DNA of 64,000 nucleotides. It comes from Bilabrum cf. latius (taxonomy: Eukaryota). How positions within the stretch are numbered: position 1 is the stretch's first letter; each line of letters starts with the position of its first letter. Below the pieces are notes generated by a model, which was not told where the DNA came from, did no database searches, and saw only the letters and a list, made by a program, of their open reading frames with translations. The stretch is taken from contig OZ237750.1 in the NCBI GenBank assembly GCA_965178125.1, positions 248,001-312,000 of the forward strand, written 5' to 3'. Of this stretch, positions 36,884 to 59,957 are shown in pieces. The position numbers and the translations under genes are program-made.

Positions 36884-37480
36884 GGGGGGGACAACGGTGG
36901 TGGTAGGTACACCAAGCGTTGAGGACGAGGGCTACGCTACGCTCGCCCCTCCTTTAAAGGCATATTTAGCAACTCAAGTGTTTTCCCTATAAACCTAGAT
37001 GATTTCCCAAGGGGTTCCCCAAGAACCCCTATAGAACCCCTCTATGTACCCATTTTCAGATATAAAATTTACTCCTACGAAGTAGGGGTAAATTGAAGAA
37101 TTCTAATCTTTATCCCCCTTATAAACTCTAACAGCAAAGACAGAGATGTTTTAGTAAAGTAGGAAAAAATGAAGAAATTAACCAAGTGTCAAAAACCTCT
37201 CTGTGTTTGCTGTAGGAACGAAAGGATGAATTCCCAAGAGACCAAGAGACCAACCGAGGATTTTCCCAAGAGAACAAGGTATTTTATCAAGAGAACAAGG
37301 TAGTTACACCAAGCGACAAACCGATGAACCGACCGATGAACCGACCGATGAACCGACCAAGGATTTCCCAAGGATTTCCCAAGGATTTCCCAAGGATTTC
37401 CCAAGCGACTAAATTGTTCTCCGAAGCAACCAAACCGATTACCCAAGAGATGATACATTATAAGGAAAACGAAAACATAT
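36884..37480 (+). repeat. Left terminal inverted repeat of element 2
   Basis: Reverse complement of ~59366-59957; shuffled shared blocks extend to ~37780. Confidence 0.95.
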
Positions 37481-37966
37481 TTTAAGTCCCTTTGGAAAAG
37501 TCCCCCAAAAATTGAGAGATTTTACAGGTCAATTATAAGAGACTTAGAAAAAATAAATTAAGTTCCCAATTAAAATTAAATGTTGTAATTCCTATGATGC
37601 CACCATAAAAATTAAAAGGAAAATAAAAAACAAATTATAATTGTTTTCCAATTAAAAACACAAAAATTGATTGAAAAATTTTGACAATATAGGATACAAA
37701 GAAATATTAAAATTTATTTTCCAAGATGCTCGGGCTTTGCCCTCCGCTCTTTTGATATCTTTTTCAAAGATTGGATTTCCCAAGAGATGATAATTTAAGC
37801 CATTCTATATCACTATAGTAAATGAACCCATTTTTAAAGGAGTTGATGATAGAGCATATTGTCAAGCAAATTAATCCACGTATTTGGAAAAAATTACACG
37901 AAAAACTAAAGGAATACAAGAAGCTCGGGCTTTGATATAAGTAGAAGACTATACTATAAAGTACTT

Positions 37967-38251
37967 ATGAAGCCACATACCTACGATTTTGAAAAGGTTG
38001 TTGAAAATTTTCAATTTAAAGCACCCTCAAGACGCAAGAATAAGAAGTATGATGTTTTTGACGAAAATGATGAATATATTACATCGTTTGGTGATAGGCG
38101 GTATTAGCAATTTTACGATAGAATAGGGTATTACAGCCATTTAAATCATTTAGATACGGACCGCCAATTTAGATACTTCAAACGACACGATATCGAAGTA
38201 AAACCAAGAACCCCAAAGTTCTTCTCACATTTTTACCTTTGGAGTTCATAA
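37967..38251 (+). CDS. Conserved small viral protein, 94 aa
   Basis: SRRKNKKYDV..FGDRRY(Q)QFYD..HLD..RYFKRH..FSHFYLW, a motif pattern I recognise from giant viruses and virophages. Confidence 0.7.
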
Positions 38252-38782
38252 ATGACACGTCAATAAATACACTAATTCATCAGGATTTAATGTATGTTTC
38301 TTACAAACCTTATCCACCCACTTTTTATACTAATTAGCGTTTTTCGCTCTATTCCAAAGACGAACTATACAATGTCTCCCGCAGGTTGCTATATCCATTC
38401 CATCCGCCTAAAACTAATATGGGTTATAGTCAATCTTATACGGAGAATGATACATTAAATAAATTAACTCAGGGTCTTCATAAAAACGTTTCCGCACGCT
38501 TTCACTCATCGTACTCTATTGCCTATCAGGACGAATTCCGTAACTGTCAAAGAAGTATACAGTACCCTTACGCTTAAATAAGCACACCCAGTGTCCAGAA
38601 TTTATTTCTTCTTGGTATAGAATGATACAACAATTACAACGACTAAATAATCCATCAATACTATTGTACTATCCTAATTCTGTATATGGAACGATGTTTA
38701 CCGACGTAGGAAGAAACCCCTTAATATTTGGTGGATTTTGGAGGAGAACACGAATATCACTATCGCTAAGAGCATAATCCAT
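38246..38782 (-). CDS. Adenain-like maturation cysteine protease, 178 aa with TAG=Gln
   Basis: GHWVCL (His), FFDSYG (Asp), YNPY(Q)F(Q)ADGMDIATCGRHC (Gln, Cys); ends TGA; missed by the ORF track. Confidence 0.9.
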
Positions 38783-38972
38783 ATATTTATTATATACATA
38801 TATATTGGGGGAGATAAAAACATCTCTTAACCATTATTTATGCGTAGAAGTATTTCTACAAAATCCGTTTTGGAATTTGTGGACAATATGAAAGACAATC
38901 ATTCAAAACAAGTTTTCAACAAAAAGATTAAACACTTTAGAAAAAATAAAAACATATAGTAAATACACTAAA

Positions 38973-39875
38973 ATGGCACATTTTTCTTGGAAGGAAACTA
39001 CAAAATCAACACCCATCGCATACGATACACACGGAAAACGTATTTTATACACAGCGGAAAACACAGACAACCAATTTGGAGATGATAGTGTTACATTCTA
39101 GGATTTTCAAGTATCATCACTTACAGGGAAAAGATTTCCGCAGAGGAAAATGGATTTATTAGCACGACACTTAATCAAACAGGTCGAACCCCTAGACGAA
39201 GACATCAAATACTTGTATGAAAAAGCATAGGAAAAGAAACATAAAGAGATTACATTAAAATAGGGTGAATTCCAATCATTACCAAATCCAAACGGAAGAG
39301 AGGTAATATATATCACCGCACCATCAGGTGCTGGGAAGTCTACTTGGGTTTCCAAGTATGCTAAGAATTATCATAGAATGTTTCCAAACAGGAGAATTAT
39401 TTTATTTTCACGAGTATAGTAGGATAAAGTCTTAGATGAAGTGAAAGGACTGAAAAGGATTATTTTAAATGAGGAACTGGTGGAGAACCCGATTGATATT
39501 CATTAGGAATTAAGGGACGCCTTAGTAATCTTGGATGATATTGATACAATCAAAGATAAAAAATTAAGGGAAGCCCTCAATCATTTACAGGATGAAATAT
39601 TATAGGTTGGTCGCCACTCAAATACTTCAGTATTAATCACAAGTCATTTATCCACCAACTATAAAAGTACCCGTATTATTCTTGCGGAAAGTCATAAGTT
39701 CGTTATATTCCCTTAGTGTTCTTCCGCACATTCTCTAAGGTATTTACTAAAAAATTATATTGGACTTGAGAAACAAGAAATCTCTAAAGTCCTAAAAATG
39801 CCTTCTCGGTGGGTTTGTGTTCATAGGAATTACCCGAGGTATTTAATTGGAGAAAGGTAGGCTTACCTTCTATAA
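38973..39875 (+). CDS. FtsK-HerA family DNA packaging ATPase, 300 aa with TAG=Gln
   Basis: YITAPSGAGKST (Walker A), LVILDDID (Walker B), IL(Q)VGRH, ITSH, ESH, SRWV; ends TAA; missed by the ORF track. Confidence 0.92.
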
Positions 39876-39904
39876 TTTTGGTCAAACTTGTTATAAAAGT
39901 TTCT

Positions 39905-40144
39905 TTAAATAATATTCTATTCTCTTATATACCGACTTGCTTGAGGTAAACTCATACCAGTCTACTACATCACCATTTTTACAAGTTTATTGCGGCGTTT
40001 CATTTTGGCGCTCACTTTCCGCTTAGGCTTACTACGGCCTTTCCCAACTTTAATATGATGGTTTTTAACTCTATTTAAAGCGTCTTGTTCTTTCTATAGC
40101 GCGAGTTGTTTGGTTCTCTATATAATCCACTTATCAATATCCAT
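39905..40144 (-). CDS. Small basic protein, 79 aa, putative virion core protein
   Basis: VGKG..RRNKLVKMVM(QQ)TGMSLPQASRYIR; ends TAA. Confidence 0.6.
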
Positions 40145-40207
40145 TATACTATACACAAACACTTTTTTTTATTTTTTGGTCAAGCTTTTTATAAAAGCTT
40201 ATAGTAA

Positions 40208-41470
40208 ATGAAAACTGCTAAAGTGAATGCTCTTATTCAGCAAGCCCTAGAGAGGGAACTGGACAATGCTAAAATGTTAGATTTACAGGCAAGGGACGAC
40301 GTAGATTTAGAAACAGAATATAGTGATTTTATAAGGAAAAGGGCAAAAATTGAACGATTAAAAGAAAGTGGAAGGTATGGAACTCCAGCGTAGAGAAAAT
40401 AGGCAGACCAAAGCAACGAGGAAATCATATCTAAATCAATATCTGGTATAATGAAAGGTATTATTGAGGGAAAGAACGTGTAGCCAGCCGTGAAAGCGTT
40501 AAAGGATTTTGTTGGTAATATCAATATGTCTCCACAAATGAAGCAACAACTCGCCCGTCAATACGTTAACATAGAGAGGTTTCAAAGGAAAGGATACGAA
40601 GGACTGCAGAGAGTTCCAGCTGAGGATAGAAAACAACTCTTAGAATTAGGAAAAGTTATTTAGGACGCATCCGGAAAAAGAATACCGTAGGGAATGTTGG
40701 GAATTGATTTCCAGCAAACACCTATGAGAACACCAACAACTAACACATTTCAAGAAGATTTTGGAGAATTAGAAAATTCTACAGAGAGTTTAAACAGGAG
40801 ATAGAGAGGTCAAATTTTACGACGAGCACGCGAAAGGATTTCCAAAGGACAACCACTTTCATAGCAACAAAGTAGGATATTGGAAGAAGAATAGGGACAA
40901 TAGTTCTCACGGAGAACTGATGGACAACAATCTTTACTTCAACATTTTCCAGAACAGAGTGGGTCATCCAAAAGTAAAACTAGCGAAGTGGATGATTTAT
41001 TAAGGAGCATACAAGGAGAAGAAAGGGGGCAAGCTATTGACGACGACGACACAACAACAGAAAAAGTCACCTCAGTTGCTTGGAAAAGTCCCGCAAGACC
41101 ACCCGGGTTTTGGGAAGGTTCGCCGATGTTTAAAAAAAGAGAGGGAAAACGATACAGACCCGAGGGAGGTCCAACGGAAAGGCCGAAAATGGACTTGGGA
41201 AAACGGGCAAGCAAACCTGTAGAACGTTTTACCGGATTTTCTCCACCGCACGGAATAGCACAACCTGGTTCTATGTCTGTAAAAGAAAGTAGAATACCGA
41301 TAGGAAAACCAAGAGGGAAAAAGAAGAAGAAGACCGGAAAAGGATTACGAGGTGGAAAAAGGATTATCTATGATACAGCAATGAATGTAGCCAAGAAAGT
41401 AAAAGGAACCACTAAAGATATTCATCATTAGGTTGCTATGGAAATATTACATCTTTTAGGAAAAGATTGA
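40208..41470 (+). CDS. Hypothetical protein, 420 aa, putative core protein
   Basis: One frame through TAGs linking track ORFs 40208 and 40988; basic KKKKTGKGLRGGK segment; ends TGA. Confidence 0.7.
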
Positions 41471-41510
41471 CGCAACCTGATAAAAATTATTTCTGTGGAT
41501 ATACTATAAA

Positions 41511-42002
41511 ATGTCAGTTTCCAATCTTCTATCTAAGAACAGCCTAGACCTGATGTCTCAAACTATTACGTGTAATGTTGTGAGTAGCGACGCAATTAAA
41601 GTGTCCGCAATTACTAACTCTACGGGAGCAGTCATAGGCAATCCAAGTATTGAGTTCACGGACGGAGAACCATATATGGCGTGGGGTGAAACTGTTCTAC
41701 GGTTTGGAAAAAACGGAGCGTCTGCTGGTTGTCAGTTCAGTATGAGCGAAGAAGGAGAAAGATGCGATATTTCACTAGTTGGTTCATTCAAGACTTCTCA
41801 AGAGGGTGTCGTTGGGCTGAGTGAGGTTGCTGGAGCTACTTTGGCTGACGCTTCTACCCCTATAAATACATCAGCAGAGAGAAAGTTTAAGGGGGCTTTA
41901 GTGTATAATGGAAGCGACAACGATGTCTATGTGGCAATTGGCAGTTCTTCTACATCTAGTTGGAAATCCTTAGTGTCAGGTTCACTTATTACACCATCTT
42001 AA
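41511..42002 (+). CDS. Hypothetical beta-rich protein, 163 aa (possible fibre/spike)
   Basis: Track ORF, Ser/Gly-rich, directly upstream of the penton; function is a guess. Confidence 0.65.
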   Translation: MSVSNLLSKNSLDLMSQTITCNVVSSDAIKVSAITNSTGAVIGNPSIEFTDGEPYMAWGETVLRFGKNGASAGCQFSMSEEGERCDISLVGSFKTSQEGVVGLSEVAGATLADASTPINTSAERKFKGALVYNGSDNDVYVAIGSSSTSSWKSLVSGSLITPS

Positions 42003-42053: not shown

Positions 42054-43163
42054 ATGAGTTCTCCAGACCGATTTTACATTACCGCAAACATACGAAATAA
42101 CGAAGATACTTTTTAGCCAGCAACCTATAGCGAAACCCGCAAGTAGCCATTATTAGATAAAGATGTTGGTGATTATACGATGTCAGTATTCCGGTTTTCC
42201 ATAAGCACCAATTCAATACCTTTATGGGTTCCACACATAGAAACCGATAAAGTGAAAAATCCATCTTCAAATCCTAATCAAACGGTGTATAGAATAAGCA
42301 TTACAGATGAAGACGGAGTAAGTTTGTGGACCTCAAGCATTCAGTGGAGACCCTAGTTAACAGGGGAAAACCAACCATCTTTTTCCAATCCTATGTAGTT
42401 TGTTCCTTATTATTATATGTATTCCGTGTAGCATTTTGTTGATTTATTCAACGAAACCATATAGAATGCTTTATCAGCGGATATTACATCAGTTCCGGTT
42501 TTACTCTTTAAAGATGGAAAGTTCAGTTTAGTAGCAAATCCCGATTACGACGAGGAAAACTCAGGACAAAAATTTAAATTAGTGTTGAATGAAGCCCTTA
42601 ACGAACTGATGACGGGTTTTCCTATGGAACGAATGGATATCCAAGATGACGACTTATACGCCAGTATTCTATTCAAAACCCTAGGAACCAATGTTTTATT
42701 CGATGATGGCTCTTCTGTTGGAAAATATGAACCTTAGGCATACTTCGAGGGAAACCCAACGGGAGACTACAGATTAATGATGACCTAGGAACGAGGGAGT
42801 TTAGTGTAGTTTTAGATTTTTCGCGGAATAGTTTTCACATCTTCAAGTCTTCCAGTGAGGAGTGAGGCAATATCCTAGAAATCCGCCTATGGACAATCCA
42901 CAAATACAGATTAGAATTCAGGTTCAGGGACCGAGAGTTTATTAGTGGATATGGACTGTGTATTAGATGACACTGAAACAGTTAATTAGTAGGTTCTTCA
43001 ATACCAGCCCCATATTCTCCACGAAATTGATTTTTTAGATACACATTCAGTAGATAGGATTTAGTTTAATCTTTATTGGAAAGATAATTATTCAAATCTA
43101 AGACCTCTTTATTTACGCCACGGAAGTGTGAGTGTGAAGTTTTTAATTTAGAAACGGAAGTGA
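42054..43163 (+). CDS. Virophage minor capsid (penton) protein, 369 aa with TAG=Gln
   Basis: DYTMSVFRFSISTNSIPLW and LYWKDNYSNLRPLYL..SVSVKFLI motifs; ends TGA. Confidence 0.85.
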
Positions 43164-43268: not shown

Positions 43269-45035
43269 ATGTCATTGAATACCTTTGCCCTTCAGCCAGT
43301 CAAAGTATCACCCGCAACACTAGATGTACAACCGAAGCCGTATGAAGTTCAAGAAGGTTATGAGAACCGGACTTTCCGTAAATATAACCCCTCCGGGTCT
43401 GCCGGAAACTACAACAGCGGGGTCAACTGGAATATTAGTATGCCTTCAGGTGTAGGTTTGTGCCGTCGTGCCTATGTCTCGTGCCGATTTTCTATCACCT
43501 TTTCCGTGAATAATCAAACCGCAGGTGGTCTAGCACCCTTTAGACCAGATTACGATGCTCCACGCTCCTATCCACTTAATCGCTCCATCGCAACATAGAC
43601 AGTTGGCATTAATAACCTTCGCTATACCCAGAACAACGGCGAACTAATGGACGCTCTGTCCCATTTACTAGATGATGATGTCCACCGTGTGAATTGCCTT
43701 GATAGTGTGTATAGACGCGATAATGTGCCTTCATACGCGATGATGAGTTAGTCTACGAATAACGCTCTTGCTTCGTATGAGGACGTGCTTTAGGACCAAC
43801 CAGCCCGAGGAAGTGGATTTTACAATTTGTATCAAATGGATAATACTGATGTACCCGCAGGTCAAACTCAAAATCGTGTTCTTGTTTTTGAATGCACTGA
43901 GGCGGTATTATGTCCACCTTTCCACTACGAAAGTAAATAGGAACAAACGGCTATATACGGAATTCAAACACTCTCCTTAAATATTAATTGGTCTCAACTG
44001 AGTAGAACCGTGTGGTCTCGTATTCCACAATAGGGCTTAACTGCTACCATTTAGTCGGTAGATGTCCAAGAACCAGTCCTATACCTTGAATAGATTACAC
44101 CTAAAACAGGATTTGTGCTTCCTAAATAGGTCTCGTATGATATTTTTGAGATGACTTCGTATACCCAAAGTCATAGTCCAACAATTGCCGCAGGTACTAC
44201 AGCAACTCTTTACAATAACAATATTAAGCTTAGTAATTCAGTTCCAAGTCGTTTATTTGTGTTTGCCCGTCGCTCACCTACAACCCTTTCAGTAGATTAG
44301 GGAAACACATTCATGGCAATTGATGGAATTAGTATAGAGATGAATAACCATAGTGGATTACTCGCCGACGCATCGCCACAGCAGTTATGGGACTTATCCA
44401 GAAGCAACGGACTTGAATAGCAATATAATGAATGGGCTATGCGTAAATTCGGGGATAGGGTGCTATCAGGTGGTCTGTTATGTATTGACCCCGCCAAGGA
44501 CTTAAGCTTAGATGTGGATTAGACAAATGGTAGCAACGGGTCTAACCAACTGTCTATAACCCTACGAGTGAAGAATAATGATGATGTGGGCTACGATAAT
44601 GTGTAGTGTGTTGTGATTGGATTATACGAAGGAGTATTAAATTTGATTGATGGGTCTAAGTTCGAGTATTAGCAGGGTGTCATCTCACGGGCAGATGTTC
44701 TTTCCGCCTCTAAATTACCCGTAGTATATGAAAGTCAATTAAGCGGACTACACGGTAGGGGTCTTGGTAAAAAGATTAGACACGCCTTAAAAAAGTTCGC
44801 ACACAAAACCGCTGATTGGGTAAAGAAAGGCAATCTCAAAAAAGTATTAAAGGATGGTAAGTAGGTATTTGACACCGCTAAAATGGTGGGTGAAATGGCT
44901 GGAATGGGTCGCCAAAGGAAACCCCGAAAAACTACCAAGAAAGGCAAGGGCTTAACAGGTGCCAAGTTAGGCTCGGGCTTAACAGGTGGGAAATCTTTAT
45001 CTCGTAACCAACTACTCGCAATGTTGTAGCAGTGA
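43269..45035 (+). CDS. Virophage major capsid protein, 588 aa with TAG=Gln
   Basis: DAPRSYPLNRSI, VPSRLFVF, LWDLSRSNGL, CIDPAKDLSL; Gly-motif basic C-terminal tail; ends TGA. Confidence 0.9.
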
Positions 45036-45090: not shown

Positions 45091-45708
45091 ATGTCAGTAT
45101 CAACTGCTGTAATGGTTGCTGGGACTTTAGCCCCTTTAGCTTATACAGGAAGCAAGTGTCTGTATTCTTGGTGGACGAAAGACGGAACTTAGAAACAGAA
45201 ATCGTGCGTGGTTGTTCCAAAAGGAAGCGGTAAAACTACGTTATGTCGTTCCCTAGAAGCGGTGGATAAGGATACGCTAATTATTGATTTAGACGAGTGT
45301 GTAAATGCTCAAATTTCAGGACAGGAAAAGCAAAAGATGGAGAAAATGTTGGTTGACGGTGATGAAAGTACCCACCGCCTCTTTTATTATTCCCAATCAA
45401 GATTAGTGTATGAAAAAATTAAAGCGGATTGGCTCACGAAGAAATCCAGACGTTTAATTGTTATGGTTGGTTCGTTGGAATTAGCGAAAGATTTATTTAA
45501 GGAAAGTTCAATTTTTGTGTGTGTGCCTTCTCACAGTCTTTTTGAGGAAATCCGTGAAGGGAAAAAATCGGGGGACTTATTGTCTGTGGAACGCTCAAGA
45601 ACGAATTTAATCGCTGGATTACATTAGAGTTAGTACTGTGTCTATTCATCCTTTTAGCAACTGGAGGAATTCGTCCGGAAAACCTTCGGTCTTGGAAGTC
45701 GTCTATGA
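45091..45708 (+). CDS. Small P-loop NTPase/kinase-like protein, 205 aa
   Basis: Hydrophobic N-terminus, VVVPKGSGKTTL, LIIDLDE; ends TGA. Confidence 0.7.
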
Positions 45709-49900: not shown

Positions 49901-52716
49901 CACGCAAGTACTTCGACAAGGTGCCTCGCTAGACTGCAACACTGCGGACTCGGCGGGAGGTTCTGTTTGGCGGCCGCACACCGAGGAAGGCCCCGTCCCT
50001 TGCCGAGTTCAAAGCCCTCCCACGAGTCGAGCGTGTACTGGCAGCACTGAACTATGGTTGCCCCCTAGCCATCGTGGACGAGGTGCCCAAAGAGCACGAT
50101 CTAGACTACAAGGACCGTAAGCTGTCTCCGGAAGAAAAGTGGGAGATCGCCTGCGAGATCGGGCGCTCCATGCGGGCTGGCGAGCGTGACTTCGTGTCAC
50201 CCAAAGATTTCGACACAGCCCGGGCCCGGCCGCTGGTGATCCCCAAGAAGGACTCGACAAAGCTACGGTTCCTTCAGGACTCCTCACTCAAGGTGAACGG
50301 CCAGCGTACCGGTCTGAACAAGGCCATCGACTACAGTGCAGCCACGCCTGTGCAGCAGACGAGCAGCATGGACGTGCTGCGCTCGGCAGCCGCAGCAGTT
50401 CGATCCTGCCCCAAGCGTGCCAGCGGATACGTCGTCGACATTTCCTCGTACTTTCGGGTCCTGCCGGTGGCAGTGGAGGATCTCCAATACAACCTGATCA
50501 AGCTGCCCGACGGGCGCATCGTGCAAGACTTCAGGCTCTCTATGGGCAGCTCATCATCTCCCGCGTTCGCAACTACGATCAGTTCGGCTTTGGCCCAAGC
50601 CCTCGAGGAGCAGTCCATTGGCAGGGCCATGCGACCCGGACGGAGACACAAGCAGAAGCAACGACGCCGGCAGCAGCAGCACGCCAACGCCCAATCCAGC
50701 ACGACGGACCAGGCGCCCCAGGCGAACTCGTCAGCAACGTCCACCCCGCCTGCCGCTAGCACGACAACGGGACAGGTCAAGACGGCCCAAGACTAGTCCC
50801 GCCATTGGTAGGTCGAAAATGAGGTGTTTGTAGATGACTTTGCCTGCCTCGGCGGAGATCACGAAGTCGATGCATGGGCAATTCGAGCCATGGGGCAGCT
50901 GGACTCCACAAACTTCCCCGTCAGCATCTCGAAAGCATTGAAGCAAGGGGCCCCAGCCCCGGTGTTCGAGTACTTGGGCCTCACCTACGACTTGATCAAA
51001 CACGAGGTGCGGTGCCCTAAGGACAAGGCCACCGACGTCCTGCGCAGACTGCACGAGGCACTCACGACGAAGGGGATGCTGCTGTCTAGCTTTGAGACCT
51101 TGGTCGGCAAGTTGTCCTTCCTGTCGGGCGCACTTTATGGTATGCGCGGTGCTCTACGTCCCCTGTATGACGCCAAGGGCTGGGCCCTTCACAAGTAGGC
51201 CAGCCGGTCACGACCAGGTGAGGTGTGGGTCCCCACCTCCTTCGTGTCCAAGGGTGGCTTCACAGTTGGGGAAATCCTCGAGGGATTCCAGGTGGCTATC
51301 CAGCGCAAAGGCGGGCGCAGTTTTCCGATGCGGGGCACCATTGACTGTCCCATCATTCGCACTGATGCGTCGGTGACAGGCTACGGCGCCGAGCTACTTC
51401 TCCACGACACGGACGGAAACATCACATCGCACACCGGCATCCACGGCACTTGGCCGCATCGCCTAGAGGCGAAGGATGTAGCGGCGGCAGAACTTGCAAC
51501 ATGTTTGTTGGCACTGGCGCATTGGCGACAGCACCTGCGTGGACGTGTGGTGCGTTTGTGGTGTGATAATGATGCTTCCGTGTAGCTGATACGCTACGGC
51601 AGACCCAAGAGCCACATCATGGCAGCCTTACTTCGCCCTATCTTCGTACTGCAGACAACGCAAGATGTGCAGATTCACGTGAAACACATTCCTGGCGAGG
51701 ACAACATCGTTGCGGACGCTTTGAGCCGCGGCTCACAGGAGGCATACACGCACCTGGACGCGGTGTATCAGGTCGACTGTCCCACGCCGATCTGGAGGAC
51801 CTTGTACAAGCACGACCATTTCACGCTGGTGGCCACTCTGGACTCAGTGGGTTGCGCACGGCGTGGGGGCACTTCGACAACTTCCTCACGTGGTACGACA
51901 TCGACCGCAGCTTCATGGACGGGCATCTTCCAGCAGCTCGCAGACTCTTCGCGTTCAGGCTCAATGCAGCGCTCTCGAGATTTGCAGTCTTCTTAGGGGA
52001 ATGTTCGCCTCTCAGTGGCGGCACCATCGCTACATACACCAGAAATGCCTAGCGAGTCGTCATCGAGTCCACAGGAGCGTGCGGCGTCCCACGGTCAAGC
52101 TAGCTCGACAGCATCCTCCGGTACTACCACAAAGCATCGCCATCGGCGCACCCGTTGCGTCGATCTTCAGCCCCACTCCGCGCAATCCGACGGTGTTTCT
52201 CGACAGCCGGTTGCAGCACAACAGAGTAGGCTGCTCGGGCAGCTGTCTGTCTCTGCTTCTGTGGGGGCCTCCGGCTGGGAGAGCTCGTCGGTGCGTCCAG
52301 ACGACAAGCCGGCCTCCAATGGCAGCAAGTGCAGTTCATCACGCGAGACGGACGCATCCATGGTGTTGCCATCCGCCTGGGCCTCCACAAAGCCGACGGT
52401 CCAGCCAAGTTCTCCATCCAAGCCGCAGAGCCCATCGCAGTCCATTGCAGAGCCGGACGATGGGCAGTCACAGGCAGCAGGTTCTGCGGCGTGCGAGCCT
52501 TCGTGGCGTGGGCAGCAGCGAGCCACGCCCCAACTGCAGGCGCAGACGAAGACTACGCCCGGTAGCTGGCGCTCAGCTGCCCCACGTCAGGGCCAGTCTT
52601 CGTGGCGAACACGAAGCCGATCGTCAAGGCGCAGGTCGTACGGGCGCTCCGCAGCTTCTGCTCACGAGAAGTTGCAGGAGCGGTGCACGGACATTCCATC
52701 CGCATCGCGGCAGTGA
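46957..52716 (+). CDS. Ngaro gag-like + reverse transcriptase + RNase H polyprotein, 1919 aa with TAG=Gln
   Basis: Ten track ORFs in one frame separated only by 11 TAGs; IPKKDSTKLRFLQD, VDISSYF, LSMGSSSSP, FVDD, YLGL, RTDAS, AELAT, CDN, HIPGEDNIVADALSR; ends TGA. Confidence 0.85.
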
Positions 52717-52910
52717 TGTGTTTGGACCGTGCTGGGGTCGCCTTCGAGGTCATTAGGCGATTCGGCAGATGGAAGTCGGCATCTGCATGCGAGGTGTACT
52801 TGCGGGGCGTCAGGGAAGGCTTGCCTCCTCTGGAGCTCGGCGGCAGGAGCCTCGATTTGAACAGGCCAGTGTGGGTGCTGGCCAGCGCGCTGCGGCTGAA
52901 CTTGGAGTGA
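51573..52910 (+). CDS. Ngaro tyrosine recombinase (overlapping frame, no ATG before the catalytic domain)
   Basis: GLRLGEL (R), GLHKAD (K), HSIR (HxxR), GRWKS (W), EVYLR (Y); frame open from 51573 with TAG=Gln; ends TGA. Confidence 0.85.
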
Positions 52911-53635
52911 GCCACACAGCCGCAGCGTACAAGACATGGCGGTAAGATTTGGCGGAGTAGTGCACGTGCTCTTCCCAGCCCCGGTCAGTCCGGTCAAGGG
53001 TAGCGCACAGGCACAGCTTTGTCAGGTCTTGCCATGTCTGATTGTTAACGAGACTAGGTTGCGCGTACACTCTGGCATCATGATCCTAACGCCGGATGGG
53101 GTTCGGTGTTGATGCCAGAGTGGGAGCGCGTGAACGTCTCGTTGCGTTCCGATGGCGGTTGCGACCGGGAAGGTGCGACCAAGCCAACGGATTGCTTGCG
53201 ATGACGCGCATACCCTCTCTGTGTTCAGGAGAGGGGCGGAGATTGGGTAATTTTTGCCCACCCTCCCAACCCCCTCCTCCTCGGCGGAGTAGTGCACGTG
53301 CTCTTCCCAGCCCCGGTCAGTCCGGTCAAGGGTAGCGCACAGGCACAGCTTTGTCAGGTCTTGCCATGTCTGATTGTTAACGAGACTAGGTTGCGCGTAC
53401 ACTCTGGCATCAGAAAGAAATCCATTCGCATACGAATGACCCAGTATCGGGTATGTATCTGGAATTATTTGGAGGTCAATGTCAGTGTGAAACCAAACGT
53501 TCAAGAGTTATGAAAATGGCGTCCATTTTAAGAGGAAAAGGAATATCCAAGAAGAATGCCCTAAAACAGGCTTGGAAAATATTTGCCTACGATACTTAAA
53601 TCTAACTCTATAGTATAATACTATAGAATACAAAA

Positions 53636-53909: not shown

Positions 53910-55751
53910 TCAATCTTTTCTAAAAAGTTTCTTCTTACTGTGAATAATTTGACATTCACCTGATTGCTCCAACTTCATACCCCCAAGGTTCGTTGACAAC
54001 TTTAGAGGTAATTCTTTCTCACTAATGAAACCATCCGTATTGACATAGTGAATGTTTTCAAGATATGGCTCAATCATTTTGGACAATTTACTTCGTCCAA
54101 GTCCAGTCAGAAAGGGACCTATTCTTGCGTAGGCTGTTTTGTAATCGTACTCTTCGTCATAGAGTGTACCCGATACAAGTCGTCCAGATGCTTTAGGATA
54201 CGCGTTCTTTAATTGTCTAAAATTCATACAATCACCATCTCGGAGTGTTTTTGTGATTGTGTTTTTCTAACATAGAGAACCCCAGATGTTGTTCAGTATC
54301 TCTTTCGCACACTTCAATCCCTATTTTTTATAACCGTACAATCGCTCAATCATCGTTTTGAACAGTCCATTTGCCTTCACCCTTGTTGTCTCATCGTAAA
54401 GTAAAGCGTTGGCTTCTCCGTCTTCAATAAGTGACACCTAAGCGCCCGTCTCAATCGCTCGGTTGATGTCATATTGAGTATAATAATTGTTTTTTCTTTT
54501 TTGTACCAATTTAGAATTGATATTTTCAATATGTACCCTAAAAATGCCGTACGGATAGAAACCACTTGAAGGTACTTCAAATTTTACGAACTTACCCCTT
54601 CTAACCGGAAATGTAAATGTACCCTTCATAATACTTGGATAAAATGAGTTAATATCGTACTGGTATGCGTTTTTTAATGTAGTATTCTTGTTTGCCCAAT
54701 TCAATCCACCACCCGAGGCTTTAGAAATCCATAGTGCTTCAACTTGGTCAATCGGGTCGGCAGGGTAAAGTTTGGAAAACTTACTGAAATACGACTTTAC
54801 AAATAGGGATGTTCTAAACATAAATCGTGATAAATCCATATATCCACCCGTCTCCTTTGATAAAGCCCTTACATTTTTCATCCGTTCTTCGTGTTTTGTT
54901 CGTAGTTCTTCCTTGGATTTAACGTCAAGGATGAAATTCTCCTTAAAAACCGATGTAATGCCTTCTGATTGATATTCACGGTCTCCATCAAATAGTAAAT
55001 AAGAATTCTCGGATTGATACAAGCGGGTTATTAGTCTACACGGTTCTTTAGACGGCGGTGTAAATAATTCTTTCTAACTAATGGGGGGAACATACTTGTA
55101 ATGCCCATTTGTTAATGAAACAGTTAGAAGACGGTCAAAATGAGTTTTTCCAGATGTGTATTCAAAGTCGCCTACAACATGAATGCGTAATTCAAGTTCG
55201 TCTTCTATCTCTGGTATTCTTCTGTAATCGATTGGGTCATCACGCCCAATTTTCAAGAGTTCTTTGAGGTCGGACTTCGACAATCTTTTAATAGTAGTTT
55301 TCCATTTGCCTTTTGCGTTCTTTACATTTACCTTACGACCAACTGAAAAAGGAAAAGCCTATTTTATAGCGTTATATAAACAATCGTTATGTTCGTCAGC
55401 ACCGCCTTCTGGTTCTGGCTTTCTAATAAGCAGTAGTTCAAAAGAATTCAATTTTCTATATTCGTCGTCATCGTCGTCTTCGTAACCCGCCCATAAACTA
55501 TCTTGATTTTCTAAATCATCTGTAGTAATCCAAGTGCTTCTTGTTCGCCAACCTGTATCTTGAAAATTGATATTCACCTTAAATTTAAAGTCATCAAACG
55601 GATTTTCACCACCATCGTCGTAATCACGAATAAATTCCAAGACATCTTTTACGGTGATAAGGTCCTCGCTCTCAAATCGCATACTCCATATTGGTTTCCC
55701 ATTAAGACGCAATTTGGTTCTTTGGGGTTCCATAAAATCGATTTCGGGCAT
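53910..55751 (-). CDS. polB: Protein-primed-type family B DNA polymerase, 613 aa with TAG=Gln
   Basis: YQYDINSFYPS, AKEILNNIWG, YVNTDGF; four track ORFs in one frame; ends TGA. Confidence 0.9.
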
Positions 55752-55808
55752 TCTATAGTATCTAATATATTATAGAATACGATAATTATTCTTAAGGTAT
55801 GAACTCAC

Positions 55809-57470
55809 TCACTTCTCAATTTTACAGAGGAATTTAGAAAGTTTCCCTTTTTTGTTCTTTGGTGGGTTCTCTTTTATCCATTTTTGAATAGCGATGCTAT
55901 TCTCAACACTCAGCTGTTTCTGGATTTTCTTATGGACTTTTTCCGTCGGTGTAATCTCCTTTTCTAATTCCAACTATTCAATCGTTTCCTACTGCTATGC
56001 GACTTGTTTCTGTAGTTCTCTTATCTACTCTCGAAGAACATCTACCTCGGATTTTGCTTTTTCCATCTCAGCAGAATGACGAAGTGCCTAAAATTTAGAT
56101 TGGAAGCCTTTTAGTAAGTCTGCGTGTTTCACATTAAATTCTTGTTTTCTCTATTTGTTCATCGTTGAATGAACACCCACCTCTGACAATAGTGTTTTAA
56201 TCATAGGTGTACCAAGGTTCTTCACTCTACCGTTCAGTTCCTACTTTAGATAATTGCGGAATTCCAAGACTGTCATTTTAAAATCTCTGCCTTCGTCCAG
56301 CCACTCTTCTTTTAGAATTTTTAAAACCGGATGTGCGCCATCAAGAATTCCTTTGTAAAAATTCTTTGATTTTGGTGCGAATTGTCCTGTAAAGTCTGGT
56401 GATGTATCATAGATTTCAACCAATAACATATAAAATGCCTTAGCCACTTCTGGATTTTCTGTAAAACGTTTTAGTGTTGTAAAGTATTCTTTGTCTCCTT
56501 TCTTAGATGTATTCACATCCAAAACACAATATCTACGGATTTCCTCGGTGATTTTGATTGGACTATCATTCGTATCAATAATTAAATTGAATGTATTGGG
56601 ACGACTTTCGGATTTGACAAACTTCTCATTACATGAAAAGTGTTTTTCCGTAATAAGATTTCTTAGCGTTGCCTACATGGCGTCCCAAATAGTTTGCGAG
56701 GCTTTTGGAATTTCATTAAAATTGACTAATAGTTTCCCGTCCAGAATTGAGTTGAAGGCGTCGGGTTGAAGCATCTTGTGTGTAAGCGTCTATAGTGTAA
56801 GGGTATATCCGAGTAGTTTTCTCATAAGGAAGGTAATAATCATCGATTTACCAGTTCCTTGTGGAGATTTCAAATATAGTGCTGTACCCAACTTCTTTCC
56901 GCCCACAATAACGTGAGCCAACCATTTCATCACAAAATCACACTATTCTTTGTCTTCTGAAGTCCACACCTTCTGGATATGTTCATAAATCATAGTCGCG
57001 CCTGCTTTTGCGTCTTCGGATAAATCCTCTATGTTTCCACAGTTTTCCCGTGTAAGTATAGGTGAACCCATAACGTTAATTGTTTGATTGTCGTAATCCA
57101 CGGTAGGTGAATTGAATTTTCTTACAATCGTAAATACGTCGGTATTCTCATTTAAGAACCAGTCTCGTGCTGACCAAGTCTTTACTCTTTTGTTGCCCAC
57201 AATCGCGTATATACAGTGTCCCCCAATCAGGTAATTTTCAGTAATATTTTTATTCGTAAGGAACTACCAGACTGGTTTCTGGGGTTCGTCATCACTTATG
57301 TTATTCCGATTTAATTCAGATGCTATTAGAAAATACACCCCGCCACCTTGCTCGTGGGTGCGGTAGAAGTATTGTTTAAGGTATTGAATACATTCCTCTT
57401 GTTTTCCGGCATTACATAGGTCCATAAGGCTTTTTGACGAATACGCTTTAGTCGGCAGAGTGAATGACAT
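55809..57470 (-). CDS. Superfamily 3 (D5-like) helicase, 553 aa with TAG=Gln
   Basis: LYLKSPQGTGKS, LLVNFNE, FNLIIDTN, IRRY; C-terminal coiled coil; ends TGA. Confidence 0.85.
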
Positions 57471-57480
57471 TTTTGTTGTT

Positions 57481-57514
57481 GTACTATAGAATACGAAAAT
57501 AATCCTTAAGGTAC
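57481..57514 (-). promoter_or_regulatory. Conserved upstream motif TACCTTAAG-N9-CGTA(T/G)TCTATA
   Basis: Also at ~55772-55800 and ~58899-58933, each just upstream of an ATG. Confidence 0.7.
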
Positions 57515-57527
57515 GATACGGGGCATC

Positions 57528-58583
57528 TCAATTTTCTATATCCCACTCCAAAATTAAATTAGGAGCAATTTCTTGGATTTTATTCTTTGGTTCCCACGTC
57601 CAATGTTCTGGTTCTGGAAAATCTTTCCATTCTATTTGATATTCTGTTTCGTTCTCGGATTTTATCTTTTTTGGGATAAAAATTGTCTGAGCATCTCGAT
57701 TATTGTCCTCATTATCAAAGTCGATAATCTGTAATTCCTCTTTTGGATAAGCCACTAAATCATCCTAATCCACAACATATAAGGGTGGTTGTCCGGGTCT
57801 TAATAACACTTTTGTAACCGTTTTGATTTCTGGATTATAGCGTAAATCGGAAGCACGAAAATTTCCGGATAATTTTTGCTGTAAATTTGTAGCCTTTCTG
57901 GGTTCTTCTAAAGGTATTCTTACGCGTGTCCCTTCTTCCAATACATTACAAGCGTCTCCTTTGCACTACGTAAAGTCGAAGTGTTCTGGGGGTAAAGGTG
58001 GTTCTTCCATATATTTTTCCAGTTGATATTCATTATAGTTTTCGATGATGTTTGGGAGCATATCCACCCATTCTACGCTTTCATTACCTGTATTTAACTC
58101 ATTTACGTTCTGTAGGGTAAATATGGCTTTTCCCAACGTTTTATTTAAGTTTTCCACTAATGCCTGTTGACGATGGCGACCTGGTTTATTTCTTCGTACA
58201 AATACGTCGGTCTCTTCTAAATATCTTTGTAAAGCATTGAATTCTTTTCCATTATCTATTTCCAAACGGTACTGCGGTTTCTGGACATTTCCACGATTGA
58301 AAATCTTTTTTGATGCCTTTAATACTTCGTTCTAACGCTTGGTTTTGAGCGGTTCAGCATCGGCCTACTTTGTGTGTAAATCAATAGCGGTTAATGCGTA
58401 TTTATAATTCTTGTCGTGGGGTAATGATAATAAATCCATTTGTACCACTTGGTGAGGTTCTGGTACATTTACGTGGGGTCTATTTACTCCTTTGGGTCGT
58501 TTTGGTCGTTTCATTAAATTTACAATACGACTGTTGGGATAAATGTTTAGGGATTGTAATATTCTTTCAAAGGCGCTACTCAT
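57528..58583 (-). CDS. rve retroviral-type integrase with C-terminal chromodomain, 351 aa with TAG=Gln
   Basis: VQMDLL, LTAID, IDNGKEF, QALVENLNKTL (DDE); YQIEWKDF..WTWEP; same architecture as the mavirus integrase. Confidence 0.92.
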
Positions 58584-58648
58584 TTGCTATATAGTTGTAT
58601 CATTCTCCTTACTTTTGTAAAGTAGGGAAAATAATTCTTGGGAAAAAA

Positions 58649-58888
58649 TCATTTGGTTTTGGTACTTTCGTGCCATTCAACTACAATTTGACTTAAATCT
58701 GTAGCCTCCTCAAAGTCAGCAAGCAGGTCATCGTCATCATCATAATTAATCCAAATAATAGTCTTTGTAAATTCAAGGTACTTTTTGGCCATATCGTATG
58801 CTTCTCGTGTTGTAATAAACGGGACTGATTTAAGACATTCTTTGGTCGCCAAGATGTAATTCTCGAGTTCCTTTTGTGATTTTGCCAT
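58649..58888 (-). CDS. Hypothetical protein, 79 aa
   Basis: MAKSQKELENY..., preceded by the same leader motif as the helicase gene. Confidence 0.6.
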   Translation of the reverse strand: MAKSQKELENYILATKECLKSVPFITTREAYDMAKKYLEFTKTIIWINYDDDDDLLADFEEATDLSQIVVEWHESTKTK

Positions 58889-59365
58889 TTTTGTGGTTGT
58901 ACTATAGACTACGTAAGTTATGCTTAAGGTACGACATTTCCACTTTAGGCCATCAATTTTTGCGTTTTTAATTAGGGAGTTGGAAAACATTTATAATTTG
59001 TTTTTTATTTTCCTTTTGATTTTTATGGTGGCATCATAGGAGTTACAACATTTAATTTTAATCTTTGAAAAAGATATCAAAAGAGCGGAGGGCAAAGCCC
59101 GAGCATCTTGGGAACTTAATTTATTCTTTCTAAGTCTCTTATAATTGACCTGTAAAATTGACAAGTTTTTTGGGGACTTTTCGAAAGGGACTTAAAATAC
59201 GTTTTCGTTTTCCTTTTAATTTTAATGGTGGCATCATTGGAATTATAACATTTAATTTTAATTGGAAAATATATTTATTCTTTCTAAGTCTCTTATAATT
59301 GACCTGTCAAATCTCTCAATTTTTGGGGGACTTTTCCAAAGGGACTTAAAATACAATTATAATTT

Positions 59366-59957
59366 GTTTTCGTTTTCCTTATAATGTATCATCTCTTGGG
59401 TAATCGGTTTGGTTGCTTCGGAGAACAATTTAGTCGCTTGGGAAATCCTTGGGAAATCCTTGGGAAATCCTTGGGAAATCCTTGGGAAATCCTTGGTCGG
59501 TTCATCGGTCGGTTCATCGGTTTGTCGCTTGGTGTAACTACCTTGTTCTCTTGATAAAATACCTTGTTCTCTTGGGAAAATCCTCGGTTGGTCTCTTGGT
59601 CTCTTGGGAATTCATCCTTTCGTTCCTACAGCAAACACAGAGAGGTTTTTGACACTTGGTTAATTTCTTCATTTTTTCCTACTTTACTAAAACATCTCTG
59701 TCTTTGCTGTTAGAGTTTATAAGGGGGATAAAGATTAGAATTCTTCAATTTACCCCTACTTCGTAGGAGTAAATTTTATATCTGAAAATGGGTACATAGA
59801 GGGGTTCTATAGGGGTTCTTGGGGAACCCCTTGGGAAATCATCTAGGTTTATAGGGAAAACACTTGAGTTGCTAAATATGCCTTTAAAGGAGGGGCGAGC
59901 GTAGCGTAGCCCTCGTCCTCAACGCTTGGTGTACCTACCACCACCGTTGTCCCCCCC
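59366..59957 (-). repeat. Right terminal inverted repeat of element 2
   Basis: Reverse complement of 36884-37480; shuffled shared blocks extend to ~58980. Confidence 0.95.

Follow-up and report, generated by a model that had tools for sequence, protein, structure and literature searches.

An integrated virophage readable only with TAG as glutamine, in a protist chromosome that also reads TAG as sense

Sputnik carries a tyrosine integrase and a primase-helicase, not an rve integrase with pPolB, and mavirus, an integrating virophage of CroV and Cafeteria, uses the standard genetic code. The EMALEs of Cafeteria burkhardae are low-GC virophages with TIRs and short TSDs in a high-GC protist genome; they encode an rve integrase and pPolB, show promoter-like motifs upstream of ORFs, can harbour a GC-rich Ngaro (about 6 kb; repeat layout A1-[ORFs]-B1A2B2), and match mavirus best, none being Sputnik-like (PMC8547959). 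The main text of that report, in which ORFs were called by a standard tool, does not contain the terms 'genetic code', 'TAG', 'UAG' or 'translation table'; it quotes a TSD of 5-6 bp for mavirus. Endogenous Polinton-like viruses of Streblomastix strix use table 6 of their host, in which TAA and TAG are reassigned, and this was read by the authors as long-term virus-host association; these viruses form the Metamonada Polinton-like MCP group and are not Sputnik/mavirus-type virophages (PMC10120064). Code-15 phages (crAss-like, Lak) carry many in-frame TAG codons for Gln, have standard-code hosts and often encode their own suppressor tRNAs. All confirmed giant-virus isolates come from standard-code hosts, and the existence of giant viruses of recoded hosts is suggested by metagenome genomes whose genes are called best with a non-standard code; for one member of the Imitervirales, code 6 lifts the coding density from 13% to 93%, and code 15 was tallied as well (PMC13524828). 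Virophages are not mentioned in the main text of that study. We found no described recoded virophage in the literature, in line with what the sequence-only reading had supposed, the S. strix viruses (PMC10120064) being the precedent.

The virophage described here occupies positions 36884-59957 of the window, the whole stretch of 64,000 nt that was analysed. It resembles the EMALEs in its low GC, TIRs, short TSD (5 bp), rve integrase, pPolB, promoter-like motifs and Ngaro with the same repeat arrangement, and in its high-GC surroundings (GC about 0.66 in the host flank and 0.34-0.43 inside the virophage). Unlike the EMALEs, all of its sizeable genes but one need TAG to be read as Gln. With mavirus it has in common an rve integrase with a chromodomain, pPolB, a helicase, TIRs, a TSD of similar length (5 bp here, 5-6 bp in mavirus) and a short AT-rich promoter-type motif before genes. 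As an integrated double jelly-roll virus that shares the stop-codon reassignment of its host it parallels the S. strix viruses, but its code reassigns TAG alone, with TAA still a stop codon. Like the code-15 phages, it has many in-frame TAG codons and is missed or fragmented by standard gene callers, whereas its host is recoded and it carries no tRNA.

Skipping the Ngaro leaves a unit of 16,414 nt with perfect TIRs (Table 1), which bears out the earlier description of an element of about 16.4 kb with matching TIRs and a TSD. The TIRs continue imperfectly to about 37772 on the left and 58980 on the right. An uninterrupted paralogous intergenic copy of the insertion site lies near 29957-29985, with a single GTCGG at that point. 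The virophage's own rve/chromodomain integrase would have inserted a linear TIR genome between two paralogous host genes, on a protist chromosome of roughly 66% GC, duplicating 5 bp. The integration is young, as the sequence-only reading had proposed: the TIRs are perfect, the TSD is intact, the genes are full-length and the differences to variant copies are mostly synonymous (26 of 30 codons, among the rows listed, the other 4 being non-synonymous). This tally covers 39 of 40 listed rows (7 intergenic; 32 positions in 30 codons), omitting row 46817 inside the Ngaro, and 340 further rows exist. Clearly, the virophage genes are under purifying selection. Near the left TIR, around 37357-37405, there are 11-nt tandem units.

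Table 1. Features of the virophage and its Ngaro insertion (window positions).
Feature	Position	Strand	Basis or remark
Left TSD copy, GTTGG	36879..36883	.	pentamer directly outside left TIR
Left TIR, perfect part	36884..37351	+	468 nt, 100% complementary to 59490-59957
Putative protease, cysteine, Ulp1/adenain type, 178 aa, 5 TAG	38246..38782	-	conserved residues and weak Foldseek matches
Putative packaging-type P-loop ATPase, 300 aa, 9 TAG	38973..39875	+	sub-cut-off AAA Pfam matches and homologues
ORF, 420 aa, Lys/Gly-rich C-terminus, 10 TAG	40208..41470	+	function unassigned
ORF, 163 aa, no TAG	41511..42002	+	differences to variant contigs mostly synonymous
Penton (minor capsid), 369 aa, 16 TAG	42054..43163	+	PF21507 (Sputnik V18/19) 2.5e-9
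MCP, 588 aa, 15 TAG	43269..45035	+	PF22031 1.6e-27, PF21915 8.1e-25
ORF, 205 aa, P-loop GSGKTT, 4 TAG	45091..45708	+	homologues at same position
Split gene, 5' part (339 codons + 2 nt)	45734..46752	+	continues at 53413-53599
Ngaro (DIRS-order tyrosine-recombinase retrotransposon), 6,660 nt, GC about 0.6	46753..53412	+	split direct repeats
Split gene, 3' part	53413..53599	+	joined ORF 401 aa, ends in TAA
ORF, 90 aa	53636..53908	+	46-48% identical to 76-77-aa ORFs of L002, L003, L004
pPolB (protein-primed polymerase)	53910..55751	-	PF03175 2.3e-6; phrog_1907 DNA polymerase 2.1e-13
Helicase (DUF5906 / VapE-like P-loop domain), 553 aa, 11 TAG	55809..57470	-	PF19263 2.4e-15, PF05272 7.2e-6
Integrase, rve + C-terminal chromodomain, 382 aa, 5 TAG	57528..58676	-	rve 6.8e-10, Chromo 5.8e-6
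Small ORF, 79 aa	58649..58888	-	behind 52-nt promoter-like repeat copy (family D3)
Right TIR	59490..59957	-	468 nt, 100% complementary to left arm
Right TSD copy, GTTGG	59958..59962	.	matches 36879-36883; directly outside right TIR

Protease, ATPase, penton, MCP, pPolB, helicase and integrase are all encoded at lengths equal to those of their homologues, and no frameshift was detected in the 10 genes with homologues in relatives, all of matching length. The seven hallmark genes named beforehand were thus recovered without frameshifts, the ATPase and the protease as tentative assignments from sub-threshold or weak matches. For the candidate ATPase, AAA-type Pfam matches fell just below their cut-offs (AAA_22, 26.4 vs 27 bits); it is 52-61% identical to ORFs of the relatives L003 and L004 and 38% identical to an ATPase-like ORF of a standard-code virophage contig (L006). 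The candidate protease had no Pfam match; among the Foldseek matches listed for its structure model (pLDDT 61.5), most are Ulp1/adenain-type proteases, which we take to belong to the CE clan, and deubiquitinases, all weak and none at E <= 1e-3. All 4 aligned sequences share its residues H64, D79, Q125 and C134. The pPolB and the helicase are 61% and 57% identical to ORFs of 613 and 547 aa, respectively, in L004. The integrase has 250 homologues, and the 120 listed are of 281-409 aa, most with both domains. The 205-aa P-loop ORF has counterparts of 206 aa (56-59% identity) in the corresponding place of L001-L004, and the N- and C-terminal parts of the 420-aa ORF are conserved in L002, L003 and L004. 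The 163-aa ORF has no homologue among the compared relative loci; the 79-aa ORF overlaps the integrase start by 28 nt, and a search gave no longer homologue of it.

The element had been called mavirus-like; this holds for the integrase and pPolB module but not for the MCP and penton, which are closer to Sputnik. The best named match is Sputnik (PDB 3j26), with the V20 and V18/19 families matched in Pfam: E values for the MCP were 2.7e-31 with Sputnik V20 (3j26_A) and 3.2e-8, a weak similarity, with mavirus (6g45_A), and the penton matched Sputnik only (3j26_N, 1.2e-12). Sequence identity to Sputnik is low. The genes of the virophage fall into a Sputnik-like morphogenesis module (MCP of the double jelly-roll type, penton and the putative packaging ATPase and maturation protease) and a replication/integration module of Maverick/mavirus type (protein-primed PolB, helicase and integrase).

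In 13 ORFs with 4341 sense codons, we counted 85 in-frame TAG codons, 0 TAA and 0 TGA; TAG was present in 10 of the 11 virophage ORFs tallied. Coding density was 0.70/0.76 under table 15 vs 0.16/0.23 under table 11 (standard), and controls with TAA or TGA as sense codons reached only 0.29-0.44. Q was the residue opposite TAG in 27% of 147 aligned sites, the self-conservation of CAA/CAG being 0.28, and the log-likelihood of TAG identity was -379 for Q and -448 for E, the next best, in comparisons with L003 and L004 that are not independent of each other. The commonest partner codons at TAG sites of the window were CAA (16), TAG (15) and CAG (14), and codon 21 of the penton gene, TAG in this copy, reads CAA in variant contigs from three runs. 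Density, TAG counts and codon alignments agree that the virophage is readable only with TAG as glutamine, as the sequence-only reading had stated. About one glutamine codon in three is TAG in this AT-rich virophage, so that its genes would be truncated in any standard-code cell.

The code is not private to the virophage. Four host paralogues with TSP1 domains (1057-1717 codons) each contain 3-4 in-frame TAG codons and are free of internal TAA and TGA. One TAG is upstream of the Pfam TSP1 domain; in the alignment of the paralogues, TAG stands opposite CAG at 2 columns and opposite TAC (Tyr) at one. The Ngaro ORFs have 11 and 4 in-frame TAG codons. Since host genes and Ngaro carry in-frame TAG, the code of the virophage matches that of its host, and the earlier claim of recoding, upheld for the virophage, has to be extended to the host. 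The evidence that the host reads TAG as sense comes from a single family of paralogues, from the Ngaro and from another virophage, all inside these 64 kb. No tRNA or Rfam RNA was found anywhere in the window; therefore, the element brings no suppressor, and TAG would be decoded as Gln by the host's own translation apparatus.

A re-screen of metagenomes yielded five TAG-recoded relatives with MCPs 48-59% identical to that of the window. TAG-free relatives would have spoken against a recoded lineage, but in the part of the MCP that was matched, all five loci have 3-6 in-frame TAG codons and lack TAA and TGA. The four loci tested (L001-L004) had coding densities of 0.81-0.92 under table 15 vs 0.35-0.39 under table 11, and the standard-code contig L006 had 0.79 and 0.77, respectively. 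Because TAG is Gln in the virophage, its host and its relatives, standard gene finders fragment the capsid genes of these relatives. In the MCP tree, the window forms a clade with L003 and L004 (SH-aLRT 98-100), and a stem branch of 0.61 (SH-aLRT 99) joins this clade with P0003, a sequence without an assigned code. Very probably, the element is an endogenous virophage whose lineage has a long history in hosts that decode UAG as glutamine. Positions 1-10460 of the window hold a further recoded virophage, which is very different from this one.

Three other readings of the TAG codons were weighed against this one. If the host used the standard code and a suppressor tRNA supplied at infection by the virophage or a giant virus timed expression, the element would resemble known gut phages that recode TAG to Gln and encode the suppressor tRNAs themselves, and the far higher TAG density in the virophage than in host genes would fit. 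We consider this very improbable: in host paralogues and Ngaro, conserved protein and a Pfam domain follow downstream of in-frame TAG, neither element nor window has a tRNA gene, and the gap in TAG frequency is as expected from AT-rich vs GC-rich codon usage. Scarcely any credence can be given to TAG as damage, that is, nonsense mutations of CAG by C-to-T hypermutation as a dead insertion decays. CAG becomes TAG by a single transition and premature stops are frequent in endogenous viral elements (PMC10120064), but no internal TAA or TGA accompanies the 85 TAG although 109 CAA codons, which would become TAA, remain; moreover, TAG is shared at 15 aligned site-pairs with L003/L004 genes despite the low identity of these relatives, variant copies differ mostly synonymously, and host genes have TAG too. 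It is also unlikely that TAG is ambiguous (a context-dependent stop or sense codon, or one subject to efficient read-through) or stands for a different amino acid, for example Glu or Tyr. Ambiguous codes occur in some ciliates, the window has too few host gene ends to show termination at TAG, and the exclusive use of TAA and TGA at ORF ends follows from calling under table 15 and says nothing on whether TAG also terminates. For another residue, there are the one TAC column in the host paralogues and the second rank of E among non-TAG partners at window TAG sites (13 vs 30 for Q); however, Q is ahead of the next residue by 69 log units, the commonest partner codons are CAA, TAG and CAG, and one TAG of this copy is replaced by CAA in a variant copy.

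With TAG as glutamine, the remaining matter is whether this copy still works. It had been described as complete; the hallmark genes are indeed full-length, but a conserved 401-aa gene is split by the Ngaro. The latter has the layout A1-[ORFs]-B1A2B2, in which A1 (46753-46928) equals A2 (53081-53256; 176 nt, 100%) and B1 (52951-53080) equals B2 (53283-53412; 130 nt, 100%), with Pfam matches to RVT_3 (3.2e-5) and, below cut-off, Phage_integrase (6.2e-5). This host Ngaro would have inserted after integration of the virophage. Uninterrupted related copies exist: in Ngaro-free contigs, sought on the earlier suggestion and present in two public runs (X1 and X2), 46752 is joined to 53413, exactly 6660 nt being skipped. 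In the product of the joined gene, the stretch 315-395 aligns with the C-terminal ends of homologues of 306-367 aa, H161 and N234-C235 do not vary among aligned homologues, and Pfam gave only a weak PPPDE match (E 0.072). Because the Ngaro splits this gene, the copy is probably crippled and not fully competent. That it is nevertheless a working inducible provirus, its split gene dispensable or supplied in trans by sister copies, seems doubtful. All other genes are intact, sister copies at 90-99% identity, Ngaro-free ones among them, occur in the runs (among the listed runs with the element, none is recorded as RNA), and about one in four endogenous virophages of C. burkhardae has an Ngaro (PMC8547959). 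Against this, the split gene has conserved counterparts in all 4 relatives that cover the region, and a 23-kb genome would be about 40% above the 16.4-kb unit that such a capsid likely holds.

By analogy with mavirus, a motif upstream of the genes suggests transcription by a giant virus. A co-infecting giant virus would transcribe the virophage from this motif and would have to tolerate UAG as Gln; the genetic code might thus act as a host-range lock and the helper might be recoded or avoid TAG stops, as the sequence-only reading had predicted. No giant-virus sequence was found within the 64-kb window. That the virophage depends on a giant virus, that the motif acts as a promoter, that the code limits host range and that the element has any role in defence are inferred rather than observed. 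The motif, TATA[G/C]TA, differs from that of mavirus, TCTA being contained in only some copies. It is missing from the integrase gene and sits 8-27 nt upstream of most virophage start codons; 9 of its 23 matches lie at this distance before a start on the same strand vs 0.41 expected, for a motif derived from the same sequences.

The window has a GC content of 0.61-0.69 and contains two AT-rich blocks, at 1-10,400 and 36,900-60,000, the second of which encloses a GC-rich core (46,750-53,400). The element in the second block (the main element) is bounded by terminal inverted repeats (TIRs) that are 100% complementary over 468 nt and continue into imperfect extensions, and a 5-bp duplication, GTTGG, abuts them on the outside. 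The element is flanked by host sequence arranged in tandem repeats. Insertion with duplication of 5 bp is well supported, because a paralogous copy of the site in this region is uninterrupted and has GTCGG just once. The sequence-only reading was right in describing an integrated element of about 16.4 kb (16,414 nt without its Ngaro) with matching TIRs and a target-site duplication; TIRs and a short duplication within host DNA are what mavirus-type elements and EMALEs (endogenous mavirus-like elements of Cafeteria burkhardae) display. The insertion lies between two members of a family of four host genes, whose products are large, beta-propeller-like membrane proteins with TSP1 domains and highly repetitive Gly/Arg- and Gln/Ala-rich tails.

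Positions of features in the window
Feature	Position	Strand	Remark
Main element (integrated virophage)	36884-59957		interrupted by Ngaro
TIRs of main element	36884-37351 / 59490-59957		
GTTGG duplication	36879-36883 and 59958-59962		
Paralogous host site	near 29957-29985		
94-aa ORF, left arm	37967-38251	+	
Tail of 420-aa ORF	41300-41470		Lys/Gly-rich
Tail of MCP, main element	44850-45035		Lys/Gly-rich
401-aa gene	45734-46752, resuming at 53413-53599		broken by Ngaro
Ngaro	46753-53412		
Ngaro A1	46753-46928		
Ngaro A2	53081-53256		
Ngaro B1	52951-53080		
Ngaro B2	53283-53412		
52-nt direct repeats	55751-55802, 57465-57516, 58883-58934		
Host TSP1-domain gene 1	17581-22734	+	member of four-gene tandem paralogue family
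Host TSP1-domain gene 2	23024-27361	-	member of four-gene tandem paralogue family
Host TSP1-domain gene 3	31242-34904	-	member of four-gene tandem paralogue family
Host TSP1-domain gene 4	60827-64000	-	member of four-gene tandem paralogue family
Second virophage-like element	1-10460		truncated at window edge
Penton-like ORF	641-1567		second element
MCP	1610-3496		second element; PF22031 3.2e-7; 20% identical to main MCP
Primase-polymerase/helicase fusion	5605-8403	-	second element; Prim-Pol 8.9e-14
~103-nt intergenic repeats	501-603, 3521-3623, 4086-4188, 5029-5131, 9186-9288, 9358-9460, 9652-9754, 10048-10150		second element

The Ngaro shows the order A1-[ORFs]-B1A2B2, with its split direct repeats arranged as in Ngaro retrotransposons of the DIRS order; A1 and A2 (176 nt) are 100% identical, as are B1 and B2 (130 nt). 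An RNase H-like domain (RVT_3) was matched at 24.3 bits against a cut-off of 21.6, and Phage_integrase at 23.3 bits, under the cut-off of 27.1 (E 6.2e-5); no RT-domain Pfam match was found in the Ngaro at E <= 0.01. In contigs of X1 and X2, two public sequencing runs from different studies, nucleotide 46752 is followed by 53413 and the two sides of the joint share no letters, as expected of insertion without target-site duplication. Because these contigs skip exactly 6660 nt, relatives of the main element free of the Ngaro exist and the Ngaro boundaries are exact. Ngaro-free copies, which the sequence-only reading had proposed to look for, were thus seen in both runs. In a further run, X8, filed under another organism label and guessed to be RNA, nucleotides 46752-53309 of the Ngaro region were present at identities of at least 99% with different flanks, essentially without the virophage. 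Among the listed runs that contain the element, none is recorded as RNA.

The Ngaro breaks an ORF that resumes on its other side. The joined product is 401 aa long, and the stretch across the insertion point (residues 315-395) can be aligned with the C-terminal ends of homologues; the earlier description of the element as complete does not hold for this gene. The product showed only a weak match to PPPDE (E 0.072), and its structure model (pLDDT 37.1) was unusable.

Virophages are double jelly-roll MCP viruses whose morphogenesis module comprises MCP, penton, ATPase and protease. The capsid genes of the main element point to Sputnik. MCP matched PF22031 (96.4 bits, 1.6e-27) and PF21915 (87.8 bits, 8.1e-25; cut-off 27 for each), as do capsid proteins of the Sputnik/V20 type, and in PDB it was nearer to Sputnik (3j26_A, 2.7e-31) than to mavirus (3.2e-8). 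The penton gene, immediately upstream of the MCP gene, encodes a protein that matched PF21507 (36.9 bits, 2.5e-9; cut-off 27) and, among solved structures, Sputnik only (3j26_N, 1.2e-12). For the putative packaging ATPase (FtsK/HerA type), generic AAA matches stayed under the cut-offs (AAA_22, 26.4 vs 27 bits) and PHROG matches were weak; the protein contains a Walker A motif, and the ORF found at the corresponding place of L006, a contig of a distant standard-code virophage, shares 38% identity with it. The putative adenain-like cysteine protease, in which H, D, Q and C are invariant, gave no match in the Pfam search. The top Foldseek neighbours of its model (pLDDT 61.5), none at E <= 1e-3, were Ulp1, adenovirus and poxvirus core proteases and related deubiquitinases; proteases of this Ulp1/adenain type form the CE clan. 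PDB sequence matches of the protease to WD40-repeat proteins were rejected as spurious.

In the replication/integration module, pPolB matched PF03175 (27.2 bits, cut-off 25.8; 2.3e-6) and nothing in PDB, the helicase contains a DUF5906/VapE-like domain (2.4e-15), and the integrase contains rve (39.6 vs 32.6 bits, 6.8e-10) and Chromo (26.6 vs 25.1 bits) domains. An OTU-like motif suspected at the N-terminus of pPolB had no Pfam support and was discarded. An rve-family integrase together with a protein-primed PolB is the combination of mavirus-type elements and EMALEs. The term mavirus-like therefore suits this module but not the capsid genes, which, compared with solved structures rather than EMALE sequences, are nearer to Sputnik, whereas those of EMALEs are closest to mavirus.

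When the standard code was applied, ORFs of the two arms reached 163 and 147 aa at most. With TAG read as Gln (table 15), one arm yielded ORFs of 588, 420, 369 and 300 aa and the other ORFs of 613, 553 and 382 aa, and the coding density of the arms rose from 0.16/0.23 (table 11) to 0.70/0.76; in controls with TAA or TGA made sense it was 0.29-0.44. The 13 ORFs, with 4341 sense codons, contain 85 TAG, 43 CAG and 109 CAA, so that TAG makes up about 36% of Gln codons; neither TAA nor TGA occurs in frame, in the conserved genes or elsewhere in the set. Employing a codon-by-codon alignment of the window genes with their homologues in two metagenomic loci, L003 and L004, we found 147 sites at which TAG faces another codon. 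Gln stood opposite TAG at 27% of these sites, compared with a conservation of 0.28 at ordinary Gln codons, and Gln was the best fit, 69 log-likelihood units over Glu, the next residue; the margin is inflated because L003 and L004 are not independent, but the ranking of Gln is still clear. TAG stood on both sides at 15 further aligned site-pairs. In variant contigs that share about 97% identity with the window, codon 21 of the penton gene is CAA instead of TAG. Among the 40 differences listed for the variant copies (340 further ones exist), 39 were used and 46817, inside the Ngaro, was omitted; 7 were intergenic and 32 fell in 30 codons, 26 of them synonymous and 4 non-synonymous with TAG as Gln. 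The translation with table 15 that the sequence-only reading had called for thus yielded full-length genes in which Gln is favoured at TAG.

TAG codons could also accumulate in decaying genes by CAG-to-TAG mutation. The same process, however, would yield TAA from the abundant CAA, so that decay of this kind is ruled out. Heavy use of TAG as a Gln codon would reflect an AT-rich genome choosing an A/T-rich synonym. Decay through hidden frameshifts was not seen either when gene lengths were compared with those of homologues: lengths agreed for all 10 genes with homologues in the metagenomic relatives (pPolB 613/613, helicase 553/547, MCP 588/587, penton 369/373-375, main element/relatives), in line with the earlier statement that no frameshift was detected. 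A split integrase gene was suspected because a promoter-like repeat precedes a 79-aa ORF, not the integrase, whose start overlaps the end of that ORF by 28 nt. A single frameshifted gene was rejected: the 79-aa ORF has no longer homologues, and the length of the integrase is normal for its family (281-409 aa among the matches listed, mostly 340-390 aa).

No tRNA or Rfam RNA was found within the 64-kb window, so that the virophage supplies no suppressor. A code of the table 15 pattern would go with a host tRNA-Gln of CUA anticodon and an eRF1 blind to UAG. The four host TSP1-domain paralogues are open over 1057-1717 codons; each contains 3-4 TAG, and neither TAA nor TGA interrupts them. Within a conserved block upstream of the TSP1 domain there is one TAG, for which one paralogue has CAG; another column has TAG vs CAG, and a third TAG vs TAC. 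In-frame TAG is conserved among these paralogues. Judging from these reading frames, the host reads TAG as sense too. The Ngaro ORFs contain 11 and 4 in-frame TAG and, because they and the host genes carry such codons, the virophage appears to have the code of its host.

A word-based search returned 7 MCP homologues. One showed full identity across 81% of the query; identities of 59%, 42%, 45% and about 25% were seen in the others. A scan of metagenomes identified five loci with MCPs 48-59% identical to that of the main element, and in all five the matched stretch contains 3-6 in-frame TAG but no TAA or TGA. Coding densities of 0.81-0.92 in four of the loci (L001-L004) were reached under table 15 only; in L006, with an MCP identity of 26%, density was about equal under both tables. 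These contigs have 42-50% GC throughout, and the parts available include no GC-rich flanks; no TIRs were found at the ends of L001-L004, which are partial contigs.

An exhaustive search of 1.84 billion representative proteins gave 2273 MCP homologues at E <= 1e-3 and 142 at E <= 1e-30. The five hits with at least 55% identity (P0128, P0129, P0130, P0196 and P0208) were without exception fragments (133-270 aa); among full-length hits, identity was 32% at best. One fragment corresponds to the L003 MCP up to its first TAG (240/242 residues identical, then TAG), and two others stop where the window MCP has TAG at residue 384. That three of the five end at an in-frame TAG of a relative reveals a practical blind spot: the fragments are an artefact of gene calling, by which the lineage is hidden. 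Since these genomes are cut at each TAG by standard gene callers, this branch of virophages may have gone largely unnoticed. In IMG/VR, scans with MCP alone and with ATPase and pPolB alignments found no relative, and a scan with the MCP alignment found L006 only (26% identity); a promoter-like 29-mer was matched neither in IMG/VR nor in the six loci. Absence from IMG/VR is weak evidence because the scans used few back-translated patterns. MCP gave no match in the 'phages' collection. In a tree built from 53 MCP rows (the first 45 hits with a length of 540 aa or more, three hits obtained earlier and the five translated loci, leaving out fragments and remaining hits), the window, L004 and L003 formed a clade with SH-aLRT 98-100. 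A stem of 0.61 (SH-aLRT 99) unites them with P0003, a library protein that may come from a recoded or a standard-code source.

TATA[G/C]TA occurs 8-27 nt upstream of 9 of the 13 starts of the main element, where 0.41 would be expected. This motif is part of a 52-nt direct repeat, with copies 69-100% identical, that lies directly before the starts of pPolB, helicase and the 79-aa ORF and is absent before the integrase. The motif also stands 17 nt before the start of the 94-aa ORF, which may be a further gene.

Virophages are thought to be inducible defences of protists against giant viruses, with Cafeteria/CroV/mavirus as the main model. In virophages and Polintons, pPolB and helicase replicate the genome, and MCP, penton, ATPase and protease assemble particles. 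The main element integrated by means of its rve/chromodomain integrase, as the footprint shows; its pPolB and helicase would replicate it, and its MCP, penton, ATPase and protease would build the particle. According to PMC8547959, motifs of this kind in mavirus correspond to the promoter of late genes in its helper giant virus, and by analogy the main element may await a giant virus for its transcription. Because a giant virus shares the ribosomes of its host, the predicted helper would have to be independent of TAG termination. The barrier would be asymmetric: the virophage would be untranslatable in standard-code cells, and in this host the TAG-terminated genes of a standard-code virus would only be extended. 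The main element itself is real and well supported; helper and host-range barrier are the most interesting parts and would follow from it.

The closest system is that of EMALEs and Ngaros in Cafeteria burkhardae, which shows the same GC contrast, TIRs and short target-site duplications. Ngaros of about 6 kb occur there in about one in four EMALEs, and the main text mentions no code change (PMC8547959). The related Halocafeteria has a host genome of 47% GC and no Ngaro. A precedent for code sharing is Streblomastix strix, whose endogenous double jelly-roll viruses use table 6 of the host (PMC10120064). Neither a recoded virophage nor a recoded Cafeteria or bicosoecid nucleus, nor reassignment of UAG only in a Cafeteria-like host, was reported in the literature covered by our limited search, in agreement with the earlier remark that no described recoded virophage lineage was known. 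Relative to known systems, a recoded virophage with a UAG-only code would be new, and the EMALE/Ngaro architecture and code-sharing endogenous viruses were known already.

The main element combines an architecture of the Cafeteria type, including a Ngaro insertion, with a host whose rare nuclear code reassigns only UAG, and offers a natural test of the effect of the genetic code on the host range of viruses. Giant viruses compatible with UAG = Gln are predicted from it; no such virus has been isolated, and according to a 2026 catalogue (PMC13524828) some giant-virus metagenome genomes are best called under non-standard codes, with all isolates coming from standard-code hosts. Re-screening of metagenomes with table 15 should yield more virophages and perhaps helper viruses. 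At slightly below an even chance, we consider a community of protist, giant virus and virophage with UAG = Gln, comprising at least two deeply separate adapted lineages (the main clade and the 20%-identical second element), free relatives in natural waters, a giant virus that tolerates or uses TAG as sense and mobilises the virophages, and a one-way code barrier to exchange with standard-code hosts.

In the main element, the MCP and the 420-aa ORF each have a Lys/Gly-rich tail at the end, and a KKGKGL(T/R)G motif is similar in the two. Cleavage or DNA-binding tails occur in other virophage capsid proteins, and these may be tails of that kind.

The second element, also virophage-like, has 5, 6 and 11 in-frame TAG in its penton-like, MCP and primase-polymerase/helicase ORFs, and its coding density is 0.66 under table 15 vs 0.19 under table 11. 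In the tree, its MCP stands apart on a very long branch. Eight intergenic repeats of about 103 nt, each with a near-palindromic core of about 58 nt, are present in this element; copies lie just before several genes and may serve as a promoter or terminator cassette.
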